Made by a program: the position numbers and the translations under genes
Assembly (NCBI GenBank): GCA_030018315.1
Contig: JASEGA010000001.1
Coordinates: 12,673-76,672, forward strand
Direction of reading: 5' to 3'
DNA: 64,000 bases
Origin: a bacterium
GTDB lineage: Bacteria; Hydrothermota; UBA3073; JACQXS01; JAGMCI01
The notes under the pieces: generated by a model
Seen by the model: the letters and a program-made list of their open reading frames with translations, nothing else
Told to the model about the DNA's origin: nothing
Database searches by the model: none
Shown here: in pieces, positions 1,398 through 61,824 of the stretch
Numbering within the stretch: the first letter of the stretch is position 1
Layout of the letters: every line of letters begins with the position of its first letter

Positions 1398-1471
1398 GGG
1401 CGGATAGCTCAGATGGTTAGAGCGTCGGTTTCACATACCGGAGGTCATGGGTTCGACTCCCTTTCCGCCCA
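1398..1471 (+). tRNA. tRNA-Val (anticodon CAC)
   Basis: Cloverleaf read by hand. Acceptor stem is gggcgga/tccgccc. Anticodon stem is tcggt/accgg (U-G closing pair) with 7-nt loop ttCACat. T-arm is GGTTCGACTCC. Confidence 0.8.
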
Positions 1472-1477
1472 TTTTAA

Positions 1478-2191
1478 GTGAAAGAAGAGCTAAAGACTCT
1501 CTGGAGGTTACAGAAGCTTGATACAGAAATTTCTAAATTAGAAGCACGTAAAAAGAATATTCCTCAAGAAATTCAGCAGTTAAATAAGAAGCTAAAAGCA
1601 AAGGAAAAAGAGCTCCAGAAGCAGAAAGAAACATTTCAAGAGTTTATCACACGTAGGAGGAATTTAGAACAAGACGCAGAGGAGTCAAAGGATAGGGTAA
1701 GGCGCTATAAAGCTCAACTATTGCAAGTTAAGACAAACAAAGAGTATCAGTCCATTTTACACGAGATAAGCACAGAGGAAGTTAAACTATCAGCTTACGA
1801 AGAGGAAATTATTGATGCTCTTACTCAGAGTGATGAACTATCTAAACAGATAGAAAATTTGAGTAAAGAGTTAGAAAAAGATAAAGATAAATTTTCAAAG
1901 TATGAAGAAAAACTACAAAAAGAGCTTTCTGAAGTAGAAAATGCTCTTCTTACAAAAAAGGATGAATATGAAAAGCTCACAAATAAGATTAACTCTGTAA
2001 TTCTTTCAAGATATCAGCAAATAAAAAGAAGTAGAGATGGAATTGGTGTAGTTGGAATATCGGAATCAACTTGTAAGGGCTGCAATGCTATCCTTCCTCC
2101 TCAATTTGTGGTTGAGGTAAGAAAAGGGAATAAGATATTAACTTGCGAACAATGTGGCAGGATTCTTATTTGGGAAGATGATGTGGATTAG
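1478..2191 (+). CDS. Coiled-coil protein with C-terminal C4 zinc ribbon (COG1579-like, putative nucleic-acid binding)
   Basis: 237 aa. A long heptad-rich coiled coil is followed by C4 Zn ribbon CKGC..x17..CEQC. Immediately downstream of a tRNA. Confidence 0.65.
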   Translation: MKEELKTLWRLQKLDTEISKLEARKKNIPQEIQQLNKKLKAKEKELQKQKETFQEFITRRRNLEQDAEESKDRVRRYKAQLLQVKTNKEYQSILHEISTEEVKLSAYEEEIIDALTQSDELSKQIENLSKELEKDKDKFSKYEEKLQKELSEVENALLTKKDEYEKLTNKINSVILSRYQQIKRSRDGIGVVGISESTCKGCNAILPPQFVVEVRKGNKILTCEQCGRILIWEDDVD

Positions 2192-4085
2192 TTTCCTTAT
2201 TCTAATCCCTTCGCTTAAGACTGTAGGTGATTACTTCTTCACTCATGGCGAGTATAAGAAAGCTGTAGAAATATATAATAGAGCTTATAGAGAAAAACCT
2301 TCCCCTGAGCTTAAGTTAAAAATTGGACTAAGTTTATACAGACTCGGTATTACTGCATTAAAAAAGGATAATTTTAATGAGGCTCTCTCCCAGTTTAAAT
2401 TAGGTGGAAATAAATATGGTATAGGGTTTGTGAATTACAAAGTAGGTAATAAAGAGAATGCGAAGAAAGTCTTCCACGACCTTAATGATTTTTATGCTTT
2501 GGGTGTAATCAGTTATCAAGAAAATGAGTTTAAAGAAGCCCTCCAGTATTTTAAGCTTGCCAATTCTCCTTATGGTATGGGAATATCTTTTTATAGACTC
2601 GGAGCTTATAAAGAGGCCTTAGATTATTTTAAAAAAGCAAACGATAATTTTTTAGCTGCCGAATGTTGTTATAAACTGAAAAAATTTAATGAAGCAGAAA
2701 GTTACTATCAAAAAGCGCTTCAAGAAACAAACTGGACAAGAGATGCATTGTATGGACTTGCATGGACCCATTATAAGTTAGGTAAGTTTAGCCTCTCAGC
2801 ACAGGAGTTTAAAAAATTTATAACCCAATATCCTAAAGACCCTTTAATACCTATTTCTCTCTATTATACAGCAAGAACTTTATTGAAGATTGGAGATTTA
2901 CAATCTGCGATTAAACATTTTAAAACACTTATCAATGAATATCCTGGCTCCGAGTTCATTGATGATTCTTATTATTGGATGGGTAAAGCATATTTTATCC
3001 AATCAGATTATACTGCCTGTATCAAACAACTCAACTTCCTTCTATCAAATTACCCGAACAGCAACCTTCGTTCCTACGCCTATTTGTTGATTGGTGATGT
3101 ATATTACAAGCAGAATGATTATAACTCTGCGATTAACTGGTACAAAAAGGTAAAAGGACCGTCAGATATACTTGACGACGCAAGATTTAAACTTGAAAAG
3201 TGTTATTTTGGGCTTGGTGAATATAGCTCAAGTTTAGATATTTTACACAATTTTATTCACAAGTATCCGAAGTCGCCTCGGTCACCAAAATTTGGGCTTG
3301 AACTTGCCCAGTATTGGGTTAAACAGAACAATTTTCAAAAAGCTATTGAATCGTATAACAATGTAATTTACAACTTTAGCTGGTCTTCATTAGTTGATGA
3401 AGCAAAACTTGGACTCGCTGATTGCTATTTTAGAATTGGAAAATATGATGCTGCTATAGAGACATATCGAGAGTTATTTAACACCTCTTTAGGAATGAAG
3501 GCACAATTTAGTCTTGCAAACACATACTTTTTGCTTGCTGAGTATGACCGAGCAATTCATGAATATGAAATCCTTATTAATGAGTTTCAAAATTCTGACT
3601 TTGCAAAAGATGCACAATATCAGATTGGCTTATCATATGAGCGACTTGAGAAGCCGAGGGAGGCGAGGCTTGCCTTTCAAAAATTTATAGAGAAGTATCA
3701 GAAAGATCCAAATTATTGGGATGCGGAGCTTAAACTATCAAAGACCTATAGGGATGAAGGTTTGATTGACGAATATCTTGAAGCCCTTCTCCATGTTGAA
3801 GCCAAAGGAGAGGGTAAACCAAAGCAGGAAGCTACTTTTTTGCTTGGTTCTTTGTATTTTGATAAAGAAGATTACAAGACTGCAAAAGAGTTTTATCTTA
3901 AAGCAGCTTCACAGTATGAGGACATTGATTCTAAATCAAAGTCGTTCATTTATGCGGCACGGTGTGCTGTAGCTTTAGGGAAAAAGGATGAAGCAATAGA
4001 GCTTTACAAGGCTGTACTCTCATTATTACCAAATCCAGCTTTAGAAGAGGAAGCAAAAAAAGGGATTAAACAACTCGGAGAGTAA
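2178..4085 (+). CDS. Tetratricopeptide-repeat protein with N-terminal membrane anchor
   Basis: Many TPR units (A/G, Y, A spacing, e.g. [26 protein letters not shown]). The in-frame ATG at 2178 avoids the overlap with the upstream ORF. Confidence 0.7.
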
Positions 4086-4087
4086 CT

Positions 4088-6472
4088 ATGAGGAAAGAAA
4101 TTATTCAAGTAGAGATTGAAGATGAAATGCAGCGGTCTTACCTTGATTATGCGATGAGCGTAATTGTTGGGAGAGCTCTTCCAGATGTTAGAGACGGTTT
4201 GAAGCCTGTACATCGTCGCATCCTCTACGCAATGTGGGAACTTGGGCTTACACATAATAGACCATTTAAGAAGTCAGCTGCTGTAGTAGGGGAAGTTCTT
4301 GGAAAATATCATCCGCATGGAGACATAGCTGTTTATGATGCCATGGTAAGGATGGTTCAACCATTCTCATTGAGATGTCCACTTATTCAGGGGCAAGGAA
4401 ATTTTGGCTCTGTAGATGGAGATGCTGCTGCAGCATATAGATACACAGAGGCAAGGTTATCTGAGATTGCCGAGTTTATGCTTATGGATATTGAAAAAGA
4501 AACCGTCCCATTGGTACCAAATTTTGATGGAAGACTAAAGGAGCCATTCGTGTTACCATCTAAGTTCCCAAATCTATTAGTGAATGGGAGCTCAGGAATT
4601 GCAGTTGGGATGGCAACCAATATTCCGCCACATAATTTAGGTGAAGTCGTAGACGCATTATGTGCATTAATAGATAAGCCGGATTTGGATGATTTTTCAT
4701 CTTATATAAAAGGGCCTGATTTCCCTACAGGTGGAGAAATAATAGGAACACGAGAGATAAGGAAAGCATACTTAACAGGGAGGGGCAAGCTTATTTTAAA
4801 AGCTAAAGTGCATACGGAAGAGACAAAGGAAGGTAAACAAGTTATCTATGTAACAGAGATTCCATATCAAGTAAACAAATCTGCGCTAATAGAACGGATT
4901 GCTAATCTTGTGAGATTAAAGAAATTAGAAAGTATATCAGATATAAGAGACGAGTCTGATAGAGAGGGGATAAGGATTGTTATAGAGCTCAAACGTGATG
5001 CTCAAGAGAGGGTAATTTTAAATAGGCTATTTAAACATACGCCATTACAGATAACTTATGGAATAGGACTTCTTGCCCTTCAAGATGGGGTACCAAAATT
5101 TTTGACCCTAAAAGACATACTTAAGGCGTTTCTCAGTCATCGATACGAAATAGTTAAGAAACGTACTGAATTTGACTTACGCCAGGCAGAAAAGAGAGCT
5201 CATATTCTTGAAGGGTTTAAAATTGCACTTTCACATATAGATAAAGTAGTTAAAATTATTAAGACATCAAAAAATGCTGAAAAAGCAAAAGAAAGATTAA
5301 TGAATAGTTTTAAGCTCAGTGATGTGCAATCACAAGCAATTTTGGATATGAAGCTATCTAGGCTTGTTGGACTTGAACGTGATAAAATTGAAGAAGAGTA
5401 TCTTGAGACGATAAAACTTAGAGAGAGGTTGAAAAGAATTCTTGCTACACCAAAAGGTGTAATGAGAGTAATACGAGACGAGCTCATTGAAATCAAGAAA
5501 AAATTTAACACCCCAAGAAGAACTAAGATAATTGAAGCAGAACAAAAAGAGCTTGAAATGAGAGATTTAATTCCAAATGAGCCTGTCTTAATTACTTTAA
5601 CTCAAAAAGGTTATATAAAATCTTCAAAAGCAGCCACTTACATGCGACAATATCGTGGCGGAATTGGAGCATCAGGGATAACACTTACTCCAGAAGATGA
5701 GGTAGCAAGAATTTTTGGTACTGAGACTCATTCTACTCTTGTATTTTTTACCAATACAGGAAGATGCTATTCTCTGAAGGCTTATGAGATTCCAGAGTGC
5801 GGAAGGGGGGCTCGTGGTAAGCCTCTTGTAAACTTGTTACAGCTAAGAGAAGGTGAGGGAGTAGTAGGCTGCTTACCTGTGAAAGAATTTAAAGGTATGA
5901 TTGTTTTAGCCACTAAGAAGGGTATGGTGAAGAAGTTGAAAGTTTCTGCACTTGAGCACATCAGAAGGACGGGTATAATTATTGCTACTTTAAGGAATGG
6001 TGACTCTATAATCTCGGGGATTCATGTAAATCCAAAAGATTATATTTTATTGATTACAAGAAAAGGTAAGGTTATCAGATTTAAAGAAGAGTTATTAAGA
6101 CCTCTATCACGAGTTTCACAGGGAGTGAGAGGTATAACACTTAGGGATAAGAATGAAGTTATAGGTGTAAAAGCTGTACCCGATAAGAAGCTGAGTTTAT
6201 TTTTTATAACATCCGATGGTTATGGAAAAAGGGTGCTGATATCAAAATTTAGACTCACCAACCGGCGTGGTTTAGGAGTAATTGGTGGTAAAGGAGAAAT
6301 AGTAGGCTGTGAAGTAGTAGATGACGATTCTGAAGTTATTATTATCACCCAAAAAGGTCAAACTTTAAGAACTAAAGTTCAAAATGTAAGAAAGATGGGA
6401 AGAGCTGCCAGGGGTGTAAGGCTGATAAGCTTAAGAGAAGGAGATAAGGTTACTGATCTTCATAAACTTTAA
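4088..6472 (+). CDS. gyrA: DNA gyrase subunit A
   Basis: 794 aa. The N-terminus [35 protein letters not shown] is canonical GyrA, followed by a C-terminal beta-pinwheel region. Confidence 0.95.
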
Positions 6473-6571: not shown

Positions 6572-7351
6572 ATGCAGCGATTTATAGGAATTGACCTTGC
6601 ATGGTCATATAGGAACACATCGGGTATTTTTGCGCTTGAATGTAAAGACAATAAAATTTTTCAACTTACCTATAATAACTCTATTAAAAAAGATGATGAA
6701 ATTTTAGATTTTATTCAAGCGAATAAGGGCAAAGGAGGCTGTCTTGTAGCTATTGATGCGCCACTTGTAGTTCCAAATGTTAAAGGTACGAGACCAGTAG
6801 ATATTGAGATTACAAAGAGGTTTCATTCTCAAGAAGCTGGCACTTTACCTGCAAATAGAAATATACTTAAGAATAATAAAGGCGAGGTGCGAGGTGAGGT
6901 ACTTGTAGAGAAATTAGAAAAAATTGGATGTGAGCATAGCTTTGAAATTAAAAAACACGATAGAGGATTTAAGGTATTTGAAGTTTTTCCGCATCCAGCA
7001 ATGGTGGTTATTTTTGATTTATCTACTATTCTTAAATATAAAGCAAAAAAAGGGAGGACACTTAATTTTCGACTTAAAGAGTTAGACCGCTATAAGACTT
7101 ATCTCTCTAATCTTCAAAAATTTGTCCCCCCATTAGCTCAACCTCCACCTTTACAGGATTGTAGGGACACGGCATGCCGTGTTCCTACAAAATGTTACGA
7201 AGATTTGTTAGATGCCCTTTTCTGTGCTTGGCTTGCATCCTATTTCTGGTATTGGGGACCGCAAGGATTTGAAGTAGTTGGTGATATGCAAAATGGATAT
7301 ATTGTGTTGCCCAAAATGGCGGGATTCCCCGCCTGTCATTGCGACCCCTGA
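6572..7351 (+). CDS. DUF429-family protein (RNase H-like fold). The 3' end is altered by inserted repeats.
   Basis: The N-terminus FIGIDLAW is DUF429-like. The ORF contains the 28-bp palindrome at 7161-7188 in frame, and its last codons run into the family-B repeat at about 7325. Confidence 0.5.
   Translation: MQRFIGIDLAWSYRNTSGIFALECKDNKIFQLTYNNSIKKDDEILDFIQANKGKGGCLVAIDAPLVVPNVKGTRPVDIEITKRFHSQEAGTLPANRNILKNNKGEVRGEVLVEKLEKIGCEHSFEIKKHDRGFKVFEVFPHPAMVVIFDLSTILKYKAKKGRTLNFRLKELDRYKTYLSNLQKFVPPLAQPPPLQDCRDTACRVPTKCYEDLLDALFCAWLASYFWYWGPQGFEVVGDMQNGYIVLPKMAGFPACHCDP
7161..7188. repeat. GTAGGGAC...GTTCCTAC 28-bp palindromic element inserted in frame within the DUF429 CDS (one arm mismatch)
   Basis: gtagggacacggcatgccgtgttcctac. 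Encodes CRDTACRVPT in the host frame. Confidence 0.8.
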
Positions 7352-7400
7352 GATTCCTCGCCAGTCATTGCGAGGAGCAAAGCGACGAAGCAATCTCTCA
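7325..7400 (-). repeat. Family-B dispersed repeat (core GATTGCTTCG..CGCAATGAC), reverse orientation, with a partial second copy
   Basis: The reverse complement of 7340-7400 reads gattgcttcgtcgctttgctcctcgcaatgactggcgagg. An additional gtcattgcgac copy lies at 7334-7346. Confidence 0.65.
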
Positions 7401-7473
7401 ACAGGCTCAGAACAAGCTTGAAAAATTTATGATTTTCTTATAAAAACTGTGATATATCCTAATACTAACAATC

Positions 7474-8060
7474 CTATTGATACGATTTTCTCTTCTTCTG
7501 TAAATTACGCTTTAGGACAAGATATACACCTGAATGTGTAACCTTATACCCCTGACTTTGAAAATGTTTTGCAATCCTATTGCACCCGTAATTAGAATGT
7601 TTTGCTTTGTAATTTAGTATTTCAAGTTCTAAGTTTTGGGGGTCCGTCTTGCAACATACTTCGGTGCACGACAAAGCTCAAGTTGACCGTACCAATTTGG
7701 ATAATATTCGTTAATCTGCTTACTTTTGCTTCCACGGATGTATTTATAAGGAGCAATTTCCAGCTTTGATTTAATTTCCCTCCTGTACGGTCTTTTTGCC
7801 CTAAACCATAATGTCCTATTGAGATATTTTAACACCTTATTTAAAGGGTTTGAGTTTATAAATTTCCAGAATCTTTCTTCTTTTTCCTTCCAGTAATAGA
7901 ATTGACGCCGAGTAATGTTAAACTTCCTGCAAGTATCAGCTGCGGTTGCATCTCCAAGTTCGTGCTTCAATAATATAGTTTTCCTTTTTTAGCCTCTTTC
8001 CTAAAATACAACGGAGTACGTTTCTTCATTAGGTAATAAACTACCATATCCAGCATAAAA
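7474..8060 (-). mobile_element. Decayed IS481/IS3-like transposase remnant: HTH N-terminus, frameshifted at an A7G run, truncated before the DDE domain
   Basis: Minus-strand fragments: MKKRTPLYFRKEAKK, then in another frame LKHELGDATAADTCRKFNITRRQFYYWKEKEE (transposase HTH), then YGCNRIAKHFQSQGYKVTHSGVYLVLKRNL (the YGyrRI region that precedes the catalytic core in IS3/IS481 transposases). No DDE core follows. Confidence 0.6.
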
Positions 8061-8267
8061 GTCAAGATAAATTGAACATATGTTTGAAGATAAACTGAGC
8101 TCAAAGTTGCGTAGACTGTTGAATGGGGCTGTAGAGATTTTTCTTTAGAATTAGGCTTAAAACCAGTTTATTATAATATAAGAGAGCCAAATAGTGGGAT
8201 AAAAGTTATTTAGAATAGAGATTTTATTGGGTCATCACTTAACCTATAATTTTAATTAGGAGGGGCA

Positions 8268-9586
8268 ATGCAAAAGTATAAGTCTCAGGGTCAACTTTTG
8301 GATGATTGGGGTGAGTTGTTGAAGTTGAAAAGGGAGTCTTGGCGAATTAAGGATAAGGATAAAGATAAGGCAATGGAATTGGAGTATGAAATAACGAAAA
8401 GAATTAGAGCTTCGTTATTAAAAAATGTAAGTTTTCCAATTCTTGACATATTCCGAAAATATAAACTGAATGTGGATGAGCAATCTTTATTTATAACTAT
8501 ATTAACAAATACAATCACTGGAGACCACCTGTCAACTGTGCGCCAATTTCTCTTAATGCTATATCCTAAGCCCAGCGATGTTATAGATAAAATAAATTAT
8601 CTGTTTCCTTCTGGCAAGTTAATAAAAAACAAGCTTCTCGTCCTCAATGAAGAACGCTTTCCTTTTAGTAGAGATAATAGTACAATCTTAGATGCGTGTG
8701 TTGGTATCCATCCCGATGTGTTACAACAAATTTTGCATTCCCCGAAGCCACGACACAAACAAAATAAAGTGCCCTCTATATTTGAAGTTCGCAAGCCCAA
8801 AATTGATATGTCACATGTAGTCTTAAAGGAGCACCAAAAAGCTGAGCTATTGGAGATAATTAAATATTTAAATAATTACAAGTTAATCTGTAAGACCACG
8901 AATCTGGCTCAAACTTTTGAGAAAGGTAGAGGTTTTATTCTCCTTTTTTCAGGCCCTCCAGGTACTGGTAAAACCTTATCTGCCGAAGCAATAGCAAACG
9001 AGTTAAATAGGAAGTTATATACAATAAATTTTGCCCAACTTGAAAGTAAATGGGTAGGTGATACTCTGAAAAGAATATTAAAGAAGTTTTTAAGACAGTA
9101 AAAACTACTTCTGCTGTTCTCCTTATAGACGAGGCTGACACAATACTTACGAGGCGTGTCTCTGCTGATAGACATACAGATGTGTCTTATAATAGAAATG
9201 TGTTAGTTCTCATGCAAGAAATAGAGAATTTTGAAGGCATCTTAATTCTAACTACAAATCGTGTTGATATACTTGATAATGCACTTGACAGGCGAATTGC
9301 ATTTAAGATAGAATTTGATTTACCGGGTATTGCTGAGAGGGAAAAAATCTGGCAAGTCCTGGTACCTGATAAGGTGGTAATTGACACAGGGGTTGATTTC
9401 TCTGTTCTTGCTAAACGCTTTCCTTTTGCTGGTGGTAACATAAAGAATGCAGTATTTTGGGCAATTATGAAGGCAGGTGAACGCTCACCTACCTCACCAA
9501 TACTTAAAATGGAAGACTTACTAAGTGCAGGTGAAAGAGAATATAGTAAGATGAATAAAAATTCAAAAAGCAGGATAGGATTTTGA
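8268..9586 (+). pseudogene. AAA+ ATPase (classic clade, single AAA domain with about 220-aa unknown N-terminal domain). Frameshift near 9095-9105, between Walker A and Walker B.
   Basis: ORF 8268-9101 ends ...FSGPPGTGKTLSAEAIANELN..KKFLRQ*. The downstream frame continues VLLIDEADTIL...TTNRVDILDNALDRRIAFKIEF (Walker B, sensor, Arg finger). The break is in a T5 run. Confidence 0.65.
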
Positions 9587-9628
9587 TGTTGACAAAATTG
9601 ACCCAATTATTATGGGTAAGGAGGGAGT

Positions 9629-9919
9629 ATGAACAAAGATGAATGGGTAGAAGAGGCAATTAAAATTGCCAAAAGGACTCACTTAAAAATATGGGAGATA
9701 GAAGACTGTGGCAAAGAGGAGGGCAAACTAATAAGATTTGCTTCTCCTGATGACCATGAAAAAGAAGTTGGTGTCTATCTATGGTACAAAAAAGTAGAGT
9801 GCTGGCCAGAGTTTGCGAGGGAGTTGACTCCTTTAGGTTGGGATTGGGCTCCAAAGTCTATTTCACAGCGTTTGAATGATATTAATGCAAGAATTGGCGA
9901 ACTTATGAAGGCAATATAG
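9629..9919 (+). CDS. Hypothetical protein (96 aa), island gene
   Basis: ORF with an AGGAGG-like RBS (ggtaaggaggg) 8 nt upstream. No recognisable domain. Confidence 0.35.
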   Translation: MNKDEWVEEAIKIAKRTHLKIWEIEDCGKEEGKLIRFASPDDHEKEVGVYLWYKKVECWPEFARELTPLGWDWAPKSISQRLNDINARIGELMKAI

Positions 9920-9939
9920 AAAAAGCCACAGGATACAGG

Positions 9940-10233
9940 TTGGATGCAGGATATGATGGATTTGTAAAGGATATAGATACTCCTAAGGAGGCGATTAAAG
10001 AAGTAAAATTGAGAGTGAAGATGAAGACGAAGGGGAGGTATAACAGGGGGCAAGAGATTGAAAAGTTTTTATTAGAAACTTATGGTAGTGTATGTAATGA
10101 GATAAGATGTTATATGGAGGATACCTTTCGAGAACTTTCAGGAGGCCAGTGTGGTTTGGATGAACAGGAGCATGAAGGAGTTGAATTTAGAGTATATCAT
10201 AAAATACCGACAGATTTGAAGAAGAAGATATAA
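9940..10233 (+). CDS. Hypothetical protein (97 aa)
   Basis: ORF only. Confidence 0.3.
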   Translation: MDAGYDGFVKDIDTPKEAIKEVKLRVKMKTKGRYNRGQEIEKFLLETYGSVCNEIRCYMEDTFRELSGGQCGLDEQEHEGVEFRVYHKIPTDLKKKI

Positions 10234-10347
10234 GGAGGAGAGGAAAATAAAAGTAATAGATTTAGATAAAAGTAAAAGTTGACATGTAAGATTTAAGATA
10301 TAGAATTAAACAACAGTTAGTCTTACACTAAATGGCTAAAGGAGGGG

Positions 10348-10806
10348 ATGATGAAATTATTTATTGCGAATGTTGGAGTGAACACAAGTCATGTAAGTAA
10401 AGGTCTCCGGAGTCCGATATTCTCAGATAAGACCTTTGAGTTTATTCCTATTCCAGAGGAAGAAGAAAGGAAAAAAGTCTTATTTTCTCCTCGATACTGT
10501 GAAATTCGGTGTTTCAACAAGCCAAATCTAGCAATTAGCGAGTATTTATGTCCTGAAAGGCGTTCAGATATTGCTCATAATGATCCAGAGTTTAATGATC
10601 CAGAGTTTAATGATCCAGAGTTCAAGTCTTTTACTTATGGTGATATTTTTTCTCCACGAGCCGCTAATCTCAAGGAAATACAACCAGATGACCTTCTTTT
10701 CTTTCTTGCAAGGTTGTGGTTATATAAAGATGGATTTACTAATGAGAGCGATCTTTACTTCATCGGTTACTTCACGGTAGAAAAAAGATTTGCTCCAAAG
10801 ACATAA
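10348..10806 (+). CDS. Hypothetical protein (152 aa). The N-terminus is faintly reminiscent of Nmad3-type nucleotide-modification-associated domains. Contains an NDPEF x3 tandem repeat.
   Basis: RBS aaaggagggg upstream. N-terminus MMKLFIANVGVNTSHVSKGLRSPIF..FEFIPIPEE. The Nmad3 resemblance is from memory only. Confidence 0.4.
   Translation: MMKLFIANVGVNTSHVSKGLRSPIFSDKTFEFIPIPEEEERKKVLFSPRYCEIRCFNKPNLAISEYLCPERRSDIAHNDPEFNDPEFNDPEFKSFTYGDIFSPRAANLKEIQPDDLLFFLARLWLYKDGFTNESDLYFIGYFTVEKRFAPKT
10582..10626 (+). repeat. In-frame 15-bp tandem repeat x3 (gatccagagtttaat) encoding NDPEFNDPEFNDPEF
   Basis: Read directly. The third unit has 2 substitutions. Confidence 0.85.
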
Positions 10807-11217
10807 TACTACCAGAACCTCAGGATAATAGGATAAAACAGAATGCTCATTTTCGCTGTCTCCAAGAAAATATAGAGACAGATTTTTTCATTATAATAGG
10901 GAAATCAGATGCCTCTTACAGATTTAAAAAAGCGTTAAAAGTCAGTTCTAATATAGTGAAAATTCTGTATAACGCAAAAGAATATGACCAAGAGAATGAT
11001 ATTTTTATAGGAAAAGATGGTAAGATATTACGAAATAAGACAAATCCAAGGCCTCGCAGCCTCCAGCGTTTCCCCCAAGTGACAAGAACAGTTCAATCCT
11101 TCTTGGACTCTTCTAAAAATAGAGAAGGTGAAAATATAAAAAAATTAATGGGAATAGTAAAGGATTGTATTTAAAAGTGATAGAAGTTCTAAGGCAAAGA
11201 GGTAAGGTAACTAATGC

Positions 11218-11517
11218 CTGATTTTTGAGTATCATTGTGAGGAGTGTAAGCGTATTTTAGGTAAGCGGTTTGAGGGAGTTCATAAGTGGTTGGATGAATT
11301 GATGTTTGATAAAAGTATTCCATTATTGTACAGGACGCGGCACCGTAAATTTAGGCATCACAAGGAAGGGATTGAGCAAGTTAGAAAGATGTGGGGTGAT
11401 GAGGCAGCGAAGGCGGCTGAAATACATATAAGAACAGACTTAAAAAGTGACGGCTGGCCAGAACATAATCCAATCTCTTTAAATAAGGAACACTTTGAGA
11501 GAAGTGGGTTGTGGTGA
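11218..11517 (+). CDS. Hypothetical Cys/His-rich small protein (about 100 aa; start codon uncertain, ATG at 11290 or upstream CTG/ATT)
   Basis: The open frame from 11215 reads ..FEYHCEECKRILGKRFEGVHKWLDELMFDKSIPLLYRTRHRKFRHHKEG... Confidence 0.3.
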   Translation: MIFEYHCEECKRILGKRFEGVHKWLDELMFDKSIPLLYRTRHRKFRHHKEGIEQVRKMWGDEAAKAAEIHIRTDLKSDGWPEHNPISLNKEHFERSGLW

Positions 11518-11526
11518 GGAGGTAAT

Positions 11527-12627
11527 ATGAAAGGAATAGCAGTTAAGGATTTCAAAAACAAAAAGGGGGTTTCAAAGATTCTTGAAGAAAACTCAAAGTT
11601 TTGGGAAACAGACATTGTGGAAGATGTATCTAAGAATAAACTTGTTCATATTTATAGAGTATATTTTGACAAGGAAGGTAAACCGATAGTAGTTAAAACC
11701 TATGATAAAAAAGGTAGAAGCTTGAGTCGTATTGGCATTGGGATAGAAGAGTCAAATACTCCCACAACTTCAAAAGGAAGAGTAGTATACATATATCGTA
11801 AGAAGAACAAAAGAGATAAATTAGAGGATGGGATATATTATAATTTTATAGTGCATAACAAGAATGGCAAAGAATTAGAACGTGCAGAGTATTACGGGGA
11901 AAAGCTATATAAGAAATGTAAAAGAGATAGGAAGGGAAAGAAGATTGAATTAAGTTACGGCTATGATATAAATGGAACACTTGAAAACACATGTAAAAAC
12001 TATTACGACAAAAATGAGAATATAATAAAGCAAGAGTCTTCCTTTAAAGGATTATATGGTTGGGACATTGGAGAGCATAGAATATTCTATTATGACAAGA
12101 ACTCAAGGCTTATAAGGACAGAAATATTTTCAAATGGTAAACTTAGGAGTGTAGAACATCGCAAATATTCTAAAAAAGGAAACTTAATAGAGATAAAATC
12201 TAAGTGGTTAAAAGAATCTCATGCTACGATTTATCTCTGGGATGAAGAGAGCAATCTTATTCAACAAGAACTTATATATTCTAATTCCATTCTGCTCTGG
12301 AAAATAAATTATGTATACGACCAGTCGAAAAGGTTAGTTAAAAAGGACTGGTTTAATTCTGAAGGCAGTCTTAAAATATGGGAAACATATGAGTATAATG
12401 AGAATAACAGAATCGCTAAGGAGGAAAAACTGAATTCCGACCACGAAGGTGATAGATGCACTACATACGAATATGATGAGAAAGGCAGGAAAGTTAGAGA
12501 AAATTGGCTTATGAAGTTTCCTGTTGATCCTACCTGCTCTGAACAGACTAATGTGTATAAATATGATGAAAGAGGGAGATTAGTTGAAGAATTATGGGAG
12601 AGTAGAAATAACTTTCCTTTAAAATAG
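11527..12627 (+). CDS. YD-repeat / MORN-like repeat protein (366 aa, no signal peptide)
   Basis: Repeated xYxYDxxGRxV..E.W units: TTYEYDEKGRKVRENW, NVYKYDERGRLVEELWE, IFYYDKNSRLIRTEIF, YGYDINGTLEN. Confidence 0.5.
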   Translation: MKGIAVKDFKNKKGVSKILEENSKFWETDIVEDVSKNKLVHIYRVYFDKEGKPIVVKTYDKKGRSLSRIGIGIEESNTPTTSKGRVVYIYRKKNKRDKLEDGIYYNFIVHNKNGKELERAEYYGEKLYKKCKRDRKGKKIELSYGYDINGTLENTCKNYYDKNENIIKQESSFKGLYGWDIGEHRIFYYDKNSRLIRTEIFSNGKLRSVEHRKYSKKGNLIEIKSKWLKESHATIYLWDEESNLIQQELIYSNSILLWKINYVYDQSKRLVKKDWFNSEGSLKIWETYEYNENNRIAKEEKLNSDHEGDRCTTYEYDEKGRKVRENWLMKFPVDPTCSEQTNVYKYDERGRLVEELWESRNNFPLK

Positions 12628-12738
12628 AATGAAAGGAATTACAGTTATGAATATATATCAGATGAGGAAATAGATTTAATTGAAAAAGATGTAGGTATAG
12701 TTGAACAAATTTTTGACAAAACTTGGTTAGAGTGAATT

Positions 12739-12810
12739 GCCGGTGTAACTCAGTGGTAGAGTAGCTGTTTTGTAAACAGCAGGTCGTCAGTTCAATTCTG
12801 ACTACCGGCT
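12739..12810 (+). tRNA. tRNA-Thr (anticodon UGU)
   Basis: Acceptor stem is gccggtg/taccggc. Anticodon stem is gctgt/acagc with loop ttTGTaa. Short variable loop, T-arm GGTCGTCAGTTCAATTCTGAC. Confidence 0.75.
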
Positions 12811-12954
12811 TAGACAATAAGGAGGTGAAAGATGGGATGCAAAGTGACTAAGAATTTGGGATTACCAAGTATTGGATGCGTCAGGTCTAAAGAAGAACAA
12901 TGCAAAGATGGATATAGAAAAGATGCATGTTCATTCCCTTGATATTACAAATCC

Positions 12955-13200
12955 TTGCAACCAGAAGAAAATGATGATAATTGGATAAAAGATTGGAAAA
13001 AGGAGTTACTTGACAAACTCCAAAATTTTTACAAGAATGGTAAAATTAAGGGGCGGTGCAACCCACACGTACCTGAGATTGAAAAACAGATTGGGGAAAT
13101 TTTAGAAAAAGCAGGTAAAAAGAAAGAAGGATTTCCTGAATTAGAAAAGGAAGGGAAAAAGAGTATCCCAATCTTTCTACACGAACAGGAGAAAATATAA
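12955..13200 (+). CDS. Hypothetical Lys/Glu-rich small protein (81 aa)
   Basis: ORF only; low complexity. Confidence 0.2.
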   Translation: MQPEENDDNWIKDWKKELLDKLQNFYKNGKIKGRCNPHVPEIEKQIGEILEKAGKKKEGFPELEKEGKKSIPIFLHEQEKI

Positions 13201-13542
13201 TGTTGGAGTAGATTGCTTGGCTCGGACAAAAGATAATAAATTCTTGGTTATGGTTGAATTTAAAGCGTATTTTACAGATACAAACTCCATCCGTAGTGCA
13301 GTACTCCATAGAATGTTTCTTAAGGAATTGGGTGAAAAGGAAAAGATGTGTCCTTATAAAAAGATTCTATATTTACTATGTAAGTATCGATTGGAGAGAT
13401 TTTTTGAACGATTTATAGAAAGAGGAAGAGAAGAAAAAAGGCAAAAAGAAAGTGAGTCTTCCATTGATGAAATGGGCAGTTGATAAAAAGTATATAGATG
13501 GCTTCTATGGACTCAAACAAATACAAAAACTGCTAAACGACA

Positions 13543-14235
13543 TTGGGAGAAAGTACAAAAATGAGAAATAAGAATGGAAAAGAAGTGATTGAAGAAACTA
13601 AAGGGCTTTGGGATGTTTTTCATATACCGAGAGAAGAAATAAATAAGCGTACTGATGAAGCGATGAAAAATCCACCATTCAAAAAAGAAATTGAGCAATT
13701 GCTAAAGGAAGTACCATTATCAAAAGTAAATAGGGCAAAAACTTTATGGGATAAATGGTACAAAGAGTATATAAAAAATGAAGAATTGGAGCAAATTTAT
13801 CGTGCATTTTGCTCAAGTCTTAAGACAAGACACTCTTACTGGAGATTTAAGTCAGCTTCTCTCTTGTTCTTGTATATTTACGGGTATGTATCGGATGAAG
13901 AATTAGACTTAATTGAAAAGGATATAGATAACAGCGGGCAAATTTTTGATAAACATAGAGAAGACCTACAAGCAGTTAAAGAAATAAATGATACTTTTAA
14001 AGATGCAACCTTTTGGAGCCATATTCCTATGAATATATCTTGTTTAGCAATTGGTGCAAGTATTGCATTTACAAGGGCAGTGAAAGTGATTTTGGATGTG
14101 ATAGAGAGATTACACAAAAATAAGGACTATAGAGAAGGTCATTATTATGGTGGAGTAATTGATCGGGATGAAGCTATATTACTCCAGGGCTACCCATATG
14201 ATTGGCTCAAAAAAGGAGGGAAAGAGGCTTTGTGA
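13543..14235 (+). CDS. Hypothetical protein (230 aa)
   Basis: ORF with no recognisable motif. Last gene of the putative island. Confidence 0.35.
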   Translation: MGESTKMRNKNGKEVIEETKGLWDVFHIPREEINKRTDEAMKNPPFKKEIEQLLKEVPLSKVNRAKTLWDKWYKEYIKNEELEQIYRAFCSSLKTRHSYWRFKSASLLFLYIYGYVSDEELDLIEKDIDNSGQIFDKHREDLQAVKEINDTFKDATFWSHIPMNISCLAIGASIAFTRAVKVILDVIERLHKNKDYREGHYYGGVIDRDEAILLQGYPYDWLKKGGKEAL

Positions 14236-14273
14236 AAACAGAAAGAAAAAGAAAGCAAATAAAGAGTTAAAAT

Positions 14274-14325
14274 GAGGGACGAGGGGCGCTACGAATGTTT
14301 ATCTGGCTGTTCCTCTCGTTCCCTC
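14274..14325. other. Strong imperfect hairpin (13-bp stem gagggacgagggg / cctctcgttccctc, 25-nt loop) downstream of the island
   Basis: Paired by hand with one bulge and one G-U. There is no U-tract on the plus strand. Confidence 0.4.
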
Positions 14326-14462
14326 TGATAAAGTAAACGCAATCTATCAGTGTAGTTGATTATCACTCTAAATCCAATTATATCAGGTAACTCTCTGCCA
14401 GCCCAAAATGGCTTTTAACTTGACAAAGTCGGTGGTTTGACATATTTTATCTTACAAACACT

Positions 14463-16313
14463 ATGGCATATTCTATACTAACAATCTTATTAATAGGGAT
14501 TCTGGAAGAAAGTTGGCAGCCTGCATTATTTGATGCTTTAAGTTACATTAAAATGACTCCTCAAGATGTCTATATTACTTCACAACCTTCAGATACATTT
14601 TGCCTTCCATTGGTTCTTGACCTCCTAAAAAGACCTATCCAGTCTCCCAAAGTTGTTGATTCCATCGCTTTAACACTTAAAGATGCTGAACTCAGCGAGC
14701 TTGTAGATATAGCAGGTATATGTATAAATTCTACTTTATCTGATAGTAGTCGAGTTCACTTGGACTCGTTAGCGGCAAAACGAGCTCTACAACTACATAA
14801 GGAGCCACTACAATTTTTGCTTTCCCAAATTACTCTTGCAAATAATTTATTAAAGAGAACGACAGCACAACTTGATTCTTCTGAATTAAACTTCTTAAAA
14901 GAGAATTTACCTAAGATTATACTTGAAGACACTACATTTAAGGACAAAAATCCGTATGAAAAAAAGATTGCAGAGGAAGAAAGTAAAGAAATAGTTAAGA
15001 AATGCCTTAATCTTTTGAAAAAAGTGAATAGAGATGAAATTATGCTATCCGCTTATGTAATTGGAAATGCTATTACACAAACCCTTCCTGGTAGGGACAC
15101 GCCGTGGCGTGTCCCTACAATTAAATATGAAGGAAAGGTTGTAACTCCTGTTGCTACAGGTGATGTTGTCTTTGCTAAGCGTATGGAATATGGATGGATT
15201 GTGATTGGTGGCCCCGGTGAGACTATATATACTGGAGACCCTGCTGTAGTTATTGACCTCGGTGGTGATGATAAATACTATGGTAAAGTAGGAAGTGGGT
15301 CCTCCGGAGTTTCAGTGTGTATTGATTTCTCTGGTAATGACTTATATCTCTCATCTATGGATTACAATTTAGGGTCAGGCTTCTTTGGAGTAGGATTCTT
15401 ATTGGACTTTGAGGGCAATGATATATACTCCTCCGGTAACTTTTCTCATGGCTCCGGATTAGTAGGGGTAGGAATTCTATGGGATACTCAAGGTAATGAC
15501 AAGTATTTTTCTGATACCCATTCTCAAGGAGCAGGCAGTTTTGGGGTAGGAGTTTTGAAAGATTTGAGCGGTAACGATTCTTATCATGGTGCACTTTATG
15601 TACAAGGATTTGGTGGCACTTTCGGGTTTGGTGCTCTCGTGGATTCAGCTGGTAATGATGTTTATTATGCAGGCGGAAAATATAAGGATTGGCTTAGATA
15701 TGAGGACCACTTTTTGTCACTATCTCAAGGTTTTGGTTATGGGATAAGACCTTATGCATCAGGTGGTATTGGAATATTAGCAGATTTTCATGGAAATGAT
15801 TCCTATGTATCAGACATTTTTGGTCAGGGTTGCTCTTATTGGTATGCTTTGGGAGGGCTTATAGATTACGAGGGTAATGATGTGTACAGCTCATACCAAT
15901 ATGCACAAGGGGCAGGTGTCCACATTGGAATTGGTGTTCTTATTGATAAATTTGGGGATGACAGTTATTTTGCAAAAGGTGTATCACAGGGGTGTGGTCA
16001 TGATTATGCGACTGGAATCCTTATAGATGGTGGTGGAAATGACTCCTATTCAGCTTACGATTTATCTCAAGGTGCAGGTAATGCAAATGCTGTCTCAATA
16101 CTTATAGATATAGATGGCAATGATAATTATCTTATAAGAGATAAAGAAACTACACATGGATTTAGTGATTTAAGGCGAGATTTTGGTGGTATTGGAGTGA
16201 TACTCGACCTCGGAGGCAAGGATAAGTATTCAGGATATGGTGATAACAATTCAATATGGGTACACTCAACTTATGGGGTCGGTATAGATAAAGAAATAGA
16301 AAGTTTAAAATGA
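14463..16313 (+). CDS. Repeat protein with about 12 units of a 23-residue GNDxY...QG.G..G.G.L.D motif (FG-GAP-like / beta-propeller or beta-helix-like) after a 230-aa N-terminal domain
   Basis: Repeat units: GGDDKYYG, SGNDLYL, EGNDIYSS, QGNDKYFS, SGNDSYHG, AGNDVYYAG, HGNDSYVSD, EGNDVYSSY, FGDDSYFAKG, GGNDSYSAY, DGNDNYLI, GGKDKYSGYG. Contains the 28-bp palindrome in frame at 15091-15118. Confidence 0.55.
   Translation: MAYSILTILLIGILEESWQPALFDALSYIKMTPQDVYITSQPSDTFCLPLVLDLLKRPIQSPKVVDSIALTLKDAELSELVDIAGICINSTLSDSSRVHLDSLAAKRALQLHKEPLQFLLSQITLANNLLKRTTAQLDSSELNFLKENLPKIILEDTTFKDKNPYEKKIAEEESKEIVKKCLNLLKKVNRDEIMLSAYVIGNAITQTLPGRDTPWRVPTIKYEGKVVTPVATGDVVFAKRMEYGWIVIGGPGETIYTGDPAVVIDLGGDDKYYGKVGSGSSGVSVCIDFSGNDLYLSSMDYNLGSGFFGVGFLLDFEGNDIYSSGNFSHGSGLVGVGILWDTQGNDKYFSDTHSQGAGSFGVGVLKDLSGNDSYHGALYVQGFGGTFGFGALVDSAGNDVYYAGGKYKDWLRYEDHFLSLSQGFGYGIRPYASGGIGILADFHGNDSYVSDIFGQGCSYWYALGGLIDYEGNDVYSSYQYAQGAGVHIGIGVLIDKFGDDSYFAKGVSQGCGHDYATGILIDGGGNDSYSAYDLSQGAGNANAVSILIDIDGNDNYLIRDKETTHGFSDLRRDFGGIGVILDLGGKDKYSGYGDNNSIWVHSTYGVGIDKEIESLK
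15091..15118. repeat. GTAGGGACACGCC-gt-GGCGTGTCCCTAC 28-bp palindromic element, in frame (encodes GRDTPWRVPT)
   Basis: Read directly: 13-bp perfect arms and a 2-nt centre. Confidence 0.85.
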
Positions 16314-17763: not shown

Positions 17764-18409
17764 TTATATTCTGTTATTTAGAATTTCTTTTATTTTAGAT
17801 GCTTTCTTTTTACCAATTAATGGAACTTTGGCAAGTTCCTCTTGAGATGCAAGTAAAATTTCTGAAAGACTTTTATATCTTGTGAGTAGTTCGTGAGTTA
17901 ACTTTGGGCCAATACCAGGAAAGGCTTCAAGTATTCTTTCAAGTTCTTTCTTTAGAGTTAGAGCTTTGGGTTTTGGATAAATTGAGATTTCTGGTCTTAT
18001 AAGTTGTTCTTGTTTAGCAATTGTGAACAGGAATTTAGCTGTATCAGTAGTATTCATAGTGAAAAGGATTGGCATCCTGTGATTCACTGCTATCATTGAG
18101 AGCGCTCCCCTTATTCCTGCTGGATAAACTCCTTTTACTTTGTATAGATTGTAGCCTTCAATAAGTAGTAATGGACGCTCAAATGCATCTTTCAGGTCTA
18201 CAATTTACCTAAATAGCCTCTTAGTCTTAATTGAGCTAACAAAGTCAAATGCGGTCTTTCGTTCCACACATACTCTATCAGAAAGCAGGTAGTCACCTAT
18301 TTGCATAGATTGCTGAATAACATTTATTCCTTTAGCTATTAAGATATCTATAATCCCTGATGTCTTTTTCCCTAACATCAGCATAAATTGTAATAACTTT
18401 GGATTTCAT
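17764..18409 (-). pseudogene. ERCC4/XPF-Hef-type nuclease with C-terminal HhH2 domain, disrupted by a +1 frameshift (near 18355) and an internal TAA (about 18203)
   Basis: Three minus-strand fragments: MKSKVITIYADVREKD; then SGIIDILIAKGINVIQQSMQIGDYLLSDRVCVERKTAFDFVSSIKTKRLFR*IVDLKDAFERPLLLIEGY (ERCC4 GDY..ERK motifs); then MIAVNHRMPILFT..AKQEQ..HhH. Confidence 0.6.
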
Positions 18410-31159: not shown

Positions 31160-32297
31160 TATAGCAGCTTATAAAGCATTAGAAATTGTGCGTTTATTTA
31201 AGAAAAAGGGTGAAGATATATTCTGTGTATTAACTCGGGAGGCAACAAAGTTTGTCTCCCCTCTTTCATTTTATACGCTTTCTGGCAACGAAGTTATATT
31301 TGATTTTTTTGAGTTAAAGAGGACACCAGTCCATGTTGAGCTTGCAACTCTTGATGCTATACTTGTTGCTCCTGCAACTTATAACTTAATAGGTAAAGTA
31401 GCGTCAGGAATAGCTGATGATGCGCTCTCCTGTATAATTGCTGATACTCGGTCACCTGTCATTTTTGCGCCATGCATGGATACAGGGATGTGGGAAAATT
31501 CAATACTTCAAGATAATATAAAGAAATTGAAATCACTTGGCTACCACTTTATAGAGCCAGTTATTGGTGAACTTTCTACCTTACAGATTGGGAAAGGTAG
31601 GTTTCCAACTCCTGAATTCATTGTAGAAGAGACTTATCGTATTCTTTACTCATCTAATGAACTGAATGGCAAGAAGATTCTTGTAACAGCAGGTAGGACA
31701 GAAGAAGACATTGACCCTGTGAGATGTATAACTAATAGGTCATCTGGTATAATGGGATATGCACTTGCATATGAGGCAAGGAGGCGGGGCGGCGATGTCA
31801 CCCTTATTTCAGGTCCATCAAGTAGGGACACGCCATGGCGTGTCCCTACATCTGGGGTGAAACTTGTAAATGTGAGAACTACTAATGAACTTGAGTTAGA
31901 GGTTTTATCACGAGCCTCTGCTTCTGACATACTTATAATGGCGGCTGCAGTCGCAGATTATACACCTGTTCAACAATTTGATAAAAAAGTGAAAAATGAG
32001 TATATGGATATAAAATTAAAGCGGACGCACGATATTCTCAAGCTTGTAAGGAAGAAGAATAAGGGGCTATTTATTATTGGCTTTTCTTTAGAAACCGATG
32101 AGCATATAAAATGGGCAAAAACTAAGCTTAGAGATAAAGCTCTCAATCTCATAGTTTCTAATGATGTAGCTTCAATTGGCTCAAATGAGGCTCGAGTTAG
32201 TCTTATCAATTGCAATTTAAAAATAAAAAAATTGCCACTACTTCCAAAGTCTGAAGTTGCAAAGAAGATAATTGATTATGTGGTAGCCAGTATTTGA
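31116..32297 (+). CDS. coaBC: Bifunctional phosphopantothenoylcysteine decarboxylase / phosphopantothenate-cysteine ligase. Carries an in-frame palindromic element insert.
   Basis: Flavoprotein N-terminus KIVLGVTGSIAAYKA and a DFP C-terminal domain. The insert SRDTPWRVPTS lies at 31822-31849. Confidence 0.9.
   Translation: MRQEMKKIVLGVTGSIAAYKALEIVRLFKKKGEDIFCVLTREATKFVSPLSFYTLSGNEVIFDFFELKRTPVHVELATLDAILVAPATYNLIGKVASGIADDALSCIIADTRSPVIFAPCMDTGMWENSILQDNIKKLKSLGYHFIEPVIGELSTLQIGKGRFPTPEFIVEETYRILYSSNELNGKKILVTAGRTEEDIDPVRCITNRSSGIMGYALAYEARRRGGDVTLISGPSSRDTPWRVPTSGVKLVNVRTTNELELEVLSRASASDILIMAAAVADYTPVQQFDKKVKNEYMDIKLKRTHDILKLVRKKNKGLFIIGFSLETDEHIKWAKTKLRDKALNLIVSNDVASIGSNEARVSLINCNLKIKKLPLLPKSEVAKKIIDYVVASI
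31822..31849. repeat. Perfect 28-bp palindrome GTAGGGACACGCCATGGCGTGTCCCTAC inserted in frame in coaBC
   Basis: Read directly; the centre is CCATGG. Confidence 0.9.
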
Positions 32298-60529: not shown

Positions 60530-60719
60530 TTTTCACCTCCTAATCATTGAGAGGCTGTTTAGCATTCTATAGATACTTATCTACCAGGAATCTATAAGCA
60601 CCAATAAAAATGCTATCACCTCCTGTTTTCATTTGACCTCCTCTCTATTGTATAATATAATTTGTTACAAAAGAGGCCAACATAATTTAAAACCAAAAAA
60701 CAACTTTCCTTTGCACTCC

Positions 60720-61480
60720 TCCCTGCTATTCAAAAGATTAAATCCAGTGACCCCTTAAAGATTATATTTGACTCCATTGGCTGGTCCTTTATTCTACCAC
60801 TTGTAGAGAAATCATATTCAATACAAGGAAATGAAGCTTATAATCCAATCTCTATCTTCAAATGTTTTCTCTTGCCTTACCTTAGAGAGATGACACTTTC
60901 TATCGCATTATGCGACTTCTTATAGCTCAGCTTGTTACAATCGGTATTATAAAAGGCAAGAAAATAGCTATTGATTCTTCTCATATCTCCGCTTATTCCA
61001 ATCCAAAAAAGCATTCAGATCCTGATGCACAATAGGGTTGTAAAAGTGAGGACTACTATTTCTTTGGATACAAAATCCACCTCGTAGTTGACACAGAATC
61101 ACAATTGCCTATTGATGTTATAGTTACGCCTAGCAATAAAGCAGATAGTCCTTATGCCCGACCCCTCATTGAGAAAACTAAAGAACTTGTCTCACCAAAA
61201 TTAGCTGCAATGGATGCTGCTTACGATTCGCACGATAACTACCAACTTTGTAATAGCTCTGATATAATCCCAATCATCGACTTAGGAGTGGAAACTCTTT
61301 TATAATCTCAGGACAAGTGTAGAGAGATGTTTTTCAGAACTCAAGGGTCAGCATTTACTTGAAGACCCAAAGGTACGAGGAATTGTAGGAATATCAATTC
61401 ATACATTTTTAAGCATAATAGCACTAATTATCAAACGAATCAAGGACTTCATTTTCATAGGAGTACATACTTTTACTCAA
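60720..61480 (+). mobile_element. Heavily decayed IS5/IS1182-family transposase remnant: N-terminal InsH-like domain, then DDE core with multiple stops/frameshifts and internal deletion
   Basis: Fragments: DSIGWSFILPLVEKSYSIQGNEAYNPISIFKCFLLPYLREMTLS; IAIDSSHISAYSNPK; GYKIHLVVDTESQLPIDVIVTPSNKADSPYARPLIEK; RCFSELKGQHLLEDPKVRGIVGISIHTFLSIIALIIKRI. Inverted repeat CAGCACATAAtTTATGTGCTG at 61474-61494. Confidence 0.6.
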
Positions 61481-61824
61481 TCCAGCACATAATTTATGTG
61501 CTGTGTAGTTCTTTCACATATTTGAATTTCAAAGAGCGTAGTTTTTATCCACTTGAAGTGGATTTAAAATTTCACCTCACAGAACTTTTACCAGAAAAAC
61601 TGCTCATTTCTAAACAGCCTCTTGAAATTAAAATCATTGCAAAATGATTATTTTGCTTATAGGTTCGAATTCGCTTGCTTTTAATATGCAGAAGTACACA
61701 CCGCTTGCAACCCTCTTACCATCATCTGAACATTCATCCCATTTGACAGTATGTTTTCCCGCGGGCATTGGCTTATCTACCAAAGTCTGTACCAGTTTAC
61801 CTGTGACATTGTATATCTTTAAGG

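Follow-up and report, generated by a model that had tools for sequence, protein, structure and literature searches.

We analysed a block of about 7 kb (positions 7393-14460) in a 64,000-nucleotide (nt) stretch of contig JASEGA010000001.1 from an uncultured bacterium of the Hydrothermota lineage (assembly GCA_030018315.1). This whole stretch is called the window below, and all coordinates refer to it. The block lies between gyrA and a DUF429 gene on the left and the gene for a 616-amino-acid (aa) repeat protein on the right. It carries in this order a transposase stub, an AAA+ ATPase gene, a gene for a partner protein of ~200 aa, an Nmad3 gene, a DUF6915 gene, a gene for a YD-repeat protein, a tRNA-Thr gene, three small open reading frames (ORFs) and a 230-aa ORF. 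A preliminary description made from the letters alone had seen here a decayed accessory island. The decay is real in our analysis and more extensive than had been noted: the four consecutive genes AAA+, partner, Nmad3 and DUF6915 each contain one frameshift, a single correction of which restores a full-length homologue, and this run is neighboured by the insertion sequence (IS) stub and by a relic that stems from a paralogue of the 230-aa ORF.

The AAA+ gene (8268..9586, plus strand) is split into two ORFs, 8268-9101 and 9182-9586, with the Walker B region in the third frame. If the 'CT' that is duplicated at 9066-9067 is dropped, a protein of 438 aa results, with an end-to-end match to PF00004 (6e-31, profile positions 1-130 of 131); one 2-bp deletion thus bears out the frameshifted AAA+ ATPase that had been proposed. 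The repaired protein keeps the Walker A, Walker B, sensor-1 and arginine-finger motifs (ALDRR is among those seen) and matches VCP-like ATPase at 6e-42. By these features it is a member of the classical clade of AAA+ proteins (PF00004), the gene as encoded being interrupted. Its N-terminal domain of 220 aa had been called novel. It is instead predicted to be a winged helix (PF22977) with no novel fold, since precomputed hits to PF22977 exist for the orthologues and the predicted model of the domain is a winged helix. Among 5.8 billion clusters, full-length orthologues form only six (441-453 aa, 44-49% identity, 100% coverage); the other matches listed are 635-762-aa proteins with a winged-helix domain and an AAA domain (WHD-AAA), aligned over about half of the query. 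The best PADLOC match is IetA (2e-36) and the best NCBIfam match is IteA (NF042959), and proteasomal and FtsH AAA models score about as high on this protein. Membership of the Iet (IetA-IetS) system was considered and rejected: the score is 110.9 bits for a cut-off of 510, and no IetS serine protease is adjacent. In profile searches none of the ORFs in 7.4-14.4 kb matched a peptidase family.

Directly downstream, two ORFs of 96 and 97 aa had been listed as orphans. The first corresponds to residues 10-78 and the second to residues 95-151 of the 191-201-aa proteins encoded behind the AAA+ orthologues, and tblastn of these proteins (loci L056/57/62, L060/61 and L063) against the window gave E values of 1e-15 to 9e-23. 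The two ORFs are accordingly the halves of one frameshifted gene (9629..10233, plus strand; lesion at ~9890-9915), which we call the partner. When all 1.84 billion representatives were scanned for it with HMMER, seven non-self relatives emerged, and a JGI metagenome scan gave one further locus; Pfam, NCBIfam, PADLOC and PHROG returned no match.

The third gene of the run, Nmad3 (PF18754; 10348..11174, plus strand), has two lesions. Its N-terminal half (10348-10806) matches PF18754 at 3e-16 and ends at profile position 143 of 247, and a 72-aa ORF in another frame (10956-11174) is its C-terminal half. One A added to the A6 run at 10781-10786 restores a protein of 275 aa that matches homologues of 265-272 aa along 99% of their length at ~43% identity. 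The other lesion is the threefold NDPEF repeat already seen in the preliminary description together with the Nmad3-like N-terminus, both of which hold. It is an in-frame tandem repeat of three 15-nt units (10578-10625) inside the invariant HNDPEF (H-x-D-P-x-F) motif, and it inserts 10 residues relative to every homologue. With 60-64 bits for a cut-off of 27, and with the NVGVN, SPIF, FEFIPI, HNDPEF and TYGD motifs present, the gene is by its sequence a member of PF18754, in the form of a pseudogene with a triplicated motif and a frameshift. The truncated product is recorded in GenBank as protein QMD71_00135. As to the orphan small ORFs of the earlier description, three of them are therefore pieces of two broken genes, namely both partner halves and the C-terminus of Nmad3.

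The Cys/His-rich protein of ~100 aa that had been described is also present and can now be named. It corresponds to DUF6915 (PF21866; 11214..11517, plus strand), starts with MPDF and then loses its frame where an extra T in the T5 run at 11222-11226 parts the ATG from the rest. Removal of one T yields a 100-aa protein that includes the HCEEC motif and raises the Pfam score from 27.6 as encoded to 31.7 bits (cut-off 27). The gene is a DUF6915 member that lost its start codon. No mention of DUF6915 was found in the available literature.

Beyond 7.4-14.4 kb, long ORFs without interruption fill most of the window, so the damage is local and does not reflect a general assembly problem. In an independent assembly of run SRR23186779 by Logan, two contigs agree with the window letter for letter, along stretches of 6,983 and 12,035 bases. 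Of the two, one stops exactly at 7393, at a 22-nt repeat element; the other begins at 10593, inside the 15-nt tandem repeat. The truncated AAA+ and Nmad3 products are recorded from Logan as well. Because each gene has suffered one indel and its motifs are otherwise intact, the sequences suggest that inactivation was recent. Programmed frameshifting or transcriptional slippage was also considered and was rejected as unlikely: the frame of AAA+ would have to shift at GAT-ACT-CTG, not a slippery sequence, the run in Nmad3 has only six A, and there is no X-XXY-YYZ heptamer at either site.

The genes of this run recur elsewhere. In three further lineages (L056/L057/L062, L060/L061 and L063), an AAA+ orthologue is directly followed by a homologue of the ~200-aa partner. 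What comes after the pair varies. In L060 there is an ORF6N protein and then a 348-aa YD-repeat homologue of the 366-aa protein of the window (E 1e-22 to 1e-24). After the pair, L056/57 encodes a protein of 565 aa in which ScoMcrA_N/DUF7255 signals are weak, membrane and zinc-ribbon proteins and a PDDEXK_3 fragment; in L056, moreover, a RelB-like antitoxin precedes the pair, and a homologue of the 230-aa ORF lies ~6 kb downstream of it (54% identity, E 1e-63). L063 has a zinc-ribbon membrane protein after the pair. In L058/59 the AAA+ orthologue is accompanied downstream by different small genes, and a GmrSD gene is found near the L058 copy. None of the loci with the AAA+/partner pair in other genomes contains a tRNA. 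Gene order and sequence together identify the AAA+ gene and the ~200-aa gene as a rare but conserved two-gene module, which forms the backbone of the block and is followed by variable genes.

Nmad3 has company of another kind. In three lineages (L003, L004-7 and L064) it stands behind a conserved gene of ~275 aa whose stop codon overlaps the Nmad3 start codon, and a gene of ~135 aa comes first in two lineages; intact operons are found at L003 639-2694, L004 2891-4909 and L064 5186-6807. Neither the ~275-aa nor the ~135-aa neighbour could be found in the window by tblastn, and the window copy of Nmad3 is thus an orphan as well as broken. Neither neighbour has a Pfam or PDB relative, and the ~275-aa protein has no profile similarity to Nmad3. 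A high-confidence predicted model of Nmad3 resembles PUA-like readers of modified bases (EVE/ASCH/YTH). Distant copies on plasmids lie beside QueC and a PfkB kinase (Halorientalis pHOS300) or beside ParDE and a restriction endonuclease (C. necator pHG1), neighbours that fit the name of the family. Going by the predicted fold, Nmad3 and its coupled ~275-aa protein may belong to a modification-sensing, type-IV-restriction-like or nucleotide-modifying system. NMAD domains are named as predicted defence domains in one paper (PMC13092281); we found no discussion in the available literature of the Nmad3 domain under that name.

We compared the surroundings of the block with those of its relatives. 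The GyrA of the window (4088-6472) has its best non-self match in candidate division WOR-3 (69%), followed by other WOR-3/Stahlbacteria metagenome-assembled genomes (MAGs; 56-65%). Three WOR-3 relatives (L052, L054 and L055; GyrA 60-69%) all keep the order upstream through gyrA, that is tRNA-Val(CAC), a CT398-like gene for a coiled-coil/zinc-ribbon protein, a TPR/YfiO-like gene and gyrA (1398-6472 in the window). In all three synteny stops at the 3' end of gyrA, and the genes downstream are different in each; DUF429, the genes of the block and the 616-aa repeat protein are all absent within 10 kb of gyrA. This suggests that the variable region begins at the end of gyrA (6472) rather than at 7393. 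A scan of genome contigs with the GyrA C-terminal domain returned only GyrA of at most 41% identity from unrelated phyla and no syntenic relative. Because of the synteny break downstream of gyrA and the rarity of the gene families, we regard the block as non-core, and the accessory status first attributed to it is supported, the same genes in the same context not being seen in the three WOR-3 relatives.

The right-hand part of the block, from the YD-repeat gene onwards, holds two intact ORFs and a relic. The 366-aa YD/RHS-repeat protein (11527..12627, plus strand) scores 33.1 bits with RHS_repeat (PF05593, cut-off 22) and 23.4 bits with TIGR01643 (cut-off 15.8), and by these profiles it is a member of the RHS/YD-repeat proteins. 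It had been presented as a YD/MORN-repeat protein; the YD half of this label stands, and no MORN family reached E 0.1 for this protein. Next to it, directly 5' of the tRNA gene, are 27 codons of a paralogue of the 230-aa ORF (12640..12720, plus strand). This relic forms the direct repeat D1 with 13873-13953 (74% DNA identity; 67% identity and E 2.5e-5 by tblastn), and no further relic was found. The tRNA-Thr gene itself (12739..12810, plus strand, anticodon UGU) was confirmed by ARAGORN and by Rfam (68.8 bits). The Rfam scan revealed tRNAs only, and the scan for promoters and terminators nothing beyond chance. Three small ORFs follow on the plus strand (12832..13483), of 36 aa (12832-12942), 81 aa (12955-13200) and 88 aa (13217-13483), all without family matches. 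The first, Cys-rich (MGCKVTKNLGLPSIGCVRSKEEQCKDGYRKDACSFP), comes directly after tRNA-Thr with a strong AGGAGG site ahead. The intact 230-aa ORF (13543..14235, plus strand), whose homologue lies in L056, has no family match; no PDB sequence match was obtained for it, for the YD protein or for DUF6915.

At the left edge, the transposase is represented by a 5' remnant on the minus strand (7474..7970) in two frames, 7474-7674 and 7629-7970. Only its helix-turn-helix (HTH) part is matched (HTH_28 5.6e-5, HTH_21 0.017). The best NCBIfam match of the joined fragments is IS481 (3.6e-7, profile positions 53-106 of 284), and IS3 gives 1e-5 (profile positions 13-181 of 369), both matches being far under the family cut-offs. 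The DDE (rve) catalytic domain gave no match in the stub, and a repeat search detected no convincing flanking inverted repeat. From its sequence, this IS481/IS3-type stub thus seems to lack what makes an insertion sequence, the rve domain and terminal inverted repeats; 'IS481-like remnant', the term first used for what bounds the block on the left, is a fair description in view of the HTH-only match. The 22-nt repeat element at 7323-7393 marks the left edge of the block and overlaps, or supplies, the last codons of DUF429. It is a tandem repeat (direct repeat D13, no strand assigned) with two copies of the unit GATTCCyCGCCwGTCATTGCGA plus tail (GGAGCAAAGCGACGAAGCAATCTC).

Some further observations concern repeats and damaged genes in the window. 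The 22-nt element resembles dispersed repeats of the repetitive extragenic palindrome or miniature inverted-repeat transposable element (REP/MITE) type, with a single copy within the window. A GC-rich palindrome of 28 nt, GTAGGGACACGnCnTGnCGTGTCCCTAC, occurs three times (7161-7188, 15091-15118 and 31822-31849), the chance expectation being none. The first two copies flank the decayed block ~7.9 kb apart, and at least these two are in frame within coding sequences, in DUF429 (...RDTACRVPT...) and in the 616-aa repeat protein (...GRDTPWRVPT...). Far from the block, 1.3 kb at 60530-61824 has no ORF of at least 100 aa; it holds a 66-aa ORF (61105-61305, ...DAAYDSHDNY...) that by eye looks like a DDE transposase fragment and is a candidate second IS remnant in the window. 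At 17764-18384 (minus strand) an ERCC4/XPF-type nuclease gene is apparently split into a 59-aa ERCC4 piece (18205-18384) and a 110-aa helix-hairpin-helix piece (17764-18096), ~108 nt apart, and may be a further pseudogene outside the block.

What the block once did can be approached through its relatives. The preliminary description had proposed a defence or conflict island, a view for which the evidence is suggestive only. On its side are the best match of AAA+ in a defence database (IetA), the RelB-like, ScoMcrA_N-like, PDDEXK_3, ORF6N and GmrSD neighbours of the orthologous loci, the modified-base-reader fold predicted for Nmad3, and the QueC and kinase or ParDE and restriction endonuclease genes beside the plasmid copies of Nmad3. 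On the other side, PADLOC-DB v2 contains no complete known anti-phage system that matches, and at least four genes are inactivated. Meaningful matches were obtained for AAA+ only (IetA and TRIP13), all via the ATPase domain, besides a marginal one of the flanking 616-aa protein (DrmC, E 0.007).

Taking these data together, we consider it likely that this WOR-3 bacterium carries here a non-core gene neighbourhood of conflict flavour, which lost its function recently, is now decaying and encodes no working system. In the course of events that we propose, rare genes of conflict type would have become dispensable, and small indels, slippage, deletion and the insertion of an IS would have eroded them. 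The variable slot behind the pair would here have been occupied by an orphan Nmad3 gene and a DUF6915 gene. One small indel each would have inactivated four genes, with a slippage triplication in the invariant motif as a second hit to Nmad3; an insertion sequence would have landed at the left edge and later been reduced to a stub itself, and the paralogue fragment next to tRNA-Thr would record a further rearrangement. Before that, a hexamer of the AAA+ protein, aimed by the winged helix and the partner, may have acted within a conflict or addiction module by remodelling or unfolding a target, either a protein or a nucleoprotein, and Nmad3 may have been a reader of, or an enzyme for, a modified nucleotide.

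Several points weigh against this explanation. All ORFs stay below the thresholds of the defence families. The G+C content of the block is level at ~35%, with no break, which means that acquisition was not recent or that the donor had a similar composition. The relatives compared (GyrA 60-69%) are too distant to reveal an empty site or the right boundary, and the orthologue loci may come from related organisms, in which case the arrangement may be partly vertical. Finally, the same reads probably underlie both assemblies, so that errors in the reads themselves are possible at the homopolymers A6 and T5.

This last point leads to the main alternative reading, in which the frameshifts are sequencing or consensus artefacts and the block, its proteins being intact, works as an accessory or defence island. 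Of the four indels, two do lie in homopolymers (A6 at 10781-10786 and T5 at 11222-11226), the genes are otherwise without stop codons and keep their catalytic motifs, and the MAG and the Logan contigs probably go back to the one run SRR23186779. The lesions of AAA+ (the extra CT) and of the partner, however, are outside homopolymers, and two assemblers yielded the identical sequence. Errors would moreover have to cluster in four neighbouring genes while ~50 others in the window are uninterrupted, and neither the 10-aa triplication in the invariant motif of Nmad3 nor the clearly degraded transposase and paralogue relic nearby would be accounted for; we judge this reading unlikely. The flat G+C content agrees with a locus inherited vertically within the lineage, with an ordinary cellular role that is being lost in this genome, and the fact that other lineages have the YD protein and the 230-aa ORF linked to the pair hints at an old common arrangement. 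Such a locus is difficult to reconcile with the extreme rarity of the gene families, with their absence within 10 kb of gyrA in the three WOR-3 relatives, with the varying content between conserved genes and with the toxin-antitoxin and restriction-type genes that are neighbours elsewhere, and we hold it to be quite improbable.

The block could also be the remnant of an integrative element, a tRNA-targeting island or prophage, that entered at tRNA-Thr, the gene that had been put forward as the original integration target. The tRNA gene within the block and the transposase stub at its edge would suit this origin, as would the repeats at 7323-7393 and the GC-rich palindromes on either side (7161 and 15091). 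The 3' end of tRNA-Thr, however, has no direct repeat in the whole window (at most 3 mismatches over 28 nt), and Pfam and PHROG searches detected no integrase, recombinase or phage structural gene. PHROG gave no match of known function and only one below 1e-3; neither the partner nor Nmad3, DUF6915 and the AAA+ N-terminal domain had relatives in IMG/VR, no phage record was obtained, and a BFVD fold search gave nothing significant. The tRNA also lies in the middle of the block and not at its end, and the loci with the pair elsewhere have none. With neither an integrase nor a 3'-end repeat in the sequence, the block would not qualify as a tRNA-integrated island or prophage, the proposal of tRNA-Thr as target finds no support, and we regard this origin as very improbable.

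The decaying conflict neighbourhood that we favour is on its own routine, a small accessory region of an uncultured bacterium. For annotation, its value is that three 'orphan' ORFs are resolved as pieces of two broken genes. A more far-reaching idea, which we put forward tentatively and at a rather low probability, is that two conflict modules not described before may be present in the window as dead copies, the WHD-AAA+/partner pair and Nmad3 with the ~275-aa protein. The pair of the first module, which recurs in at least four lineages, may head a slot of variable defence-like cargo and be linked to the YD-repeat or the 230-aa protein. Were this idea true, the intact orthologues in other metagenomes would be functional versions. 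The WHD-AAA+/partner pair, a rare, conserved and unannotated module beside variable defence-type genes, could matter to the mining of defence systems, as could Nmad3: for this family, so far a Pfam name only, a PUA-like reader fold is predicted at high confidence, and it is expected to act together with its conserved neighbour of ~275 aa.

The block can be set beside several known systems. It shares with tRNA-associated genomic islands rare genes, a tRNA gene and an IS fragment, and it differs from them in having neither an integrase nor tRNA-derived direct repeats nor a compositional break, and in the internal position of its tRNA. The YD protein has the signature of the RHS/YD-repeat proteins but is only 366 aa long, and it shows no family match beyond the YD repeats, hence no recognisable N-terminal delivery or C-terminal toxin domain. 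Nmad3 shares its predicted fold with the PUA-like readers (EVE, ASCH and YTH, the sensor domain of VcaM4I and the N-terminal domain of Thermococcus McrB) at 10-16% identity, with about half of its 268 aa outside the common fold and without a fused nuclease. The AAA+/partner pair recalls IetAS, a defence or plasmid-stability system in which a single-domain classical AAA+ gene is likewise directly followed by a small-to-medium partner gene. IetS, however, is a subtilisin-like protease, whereas the partner in the window belongs to an unrelated, unannotated family of ~200 aa, and the AAA+ gene of the window is frameshifted. In its predicted domain order, the AAA+ protein agrees with the WHD-AAA proteins (PF22977 followed by PF00004; 'SpoVK/Ycf46/Vps4 family AAA+-type ATPase'). 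Most of the members listed have 690-760 aa, whereas the subgroup to which the window protein belongs has 440-453 aa and is tied to a small partner of its own.

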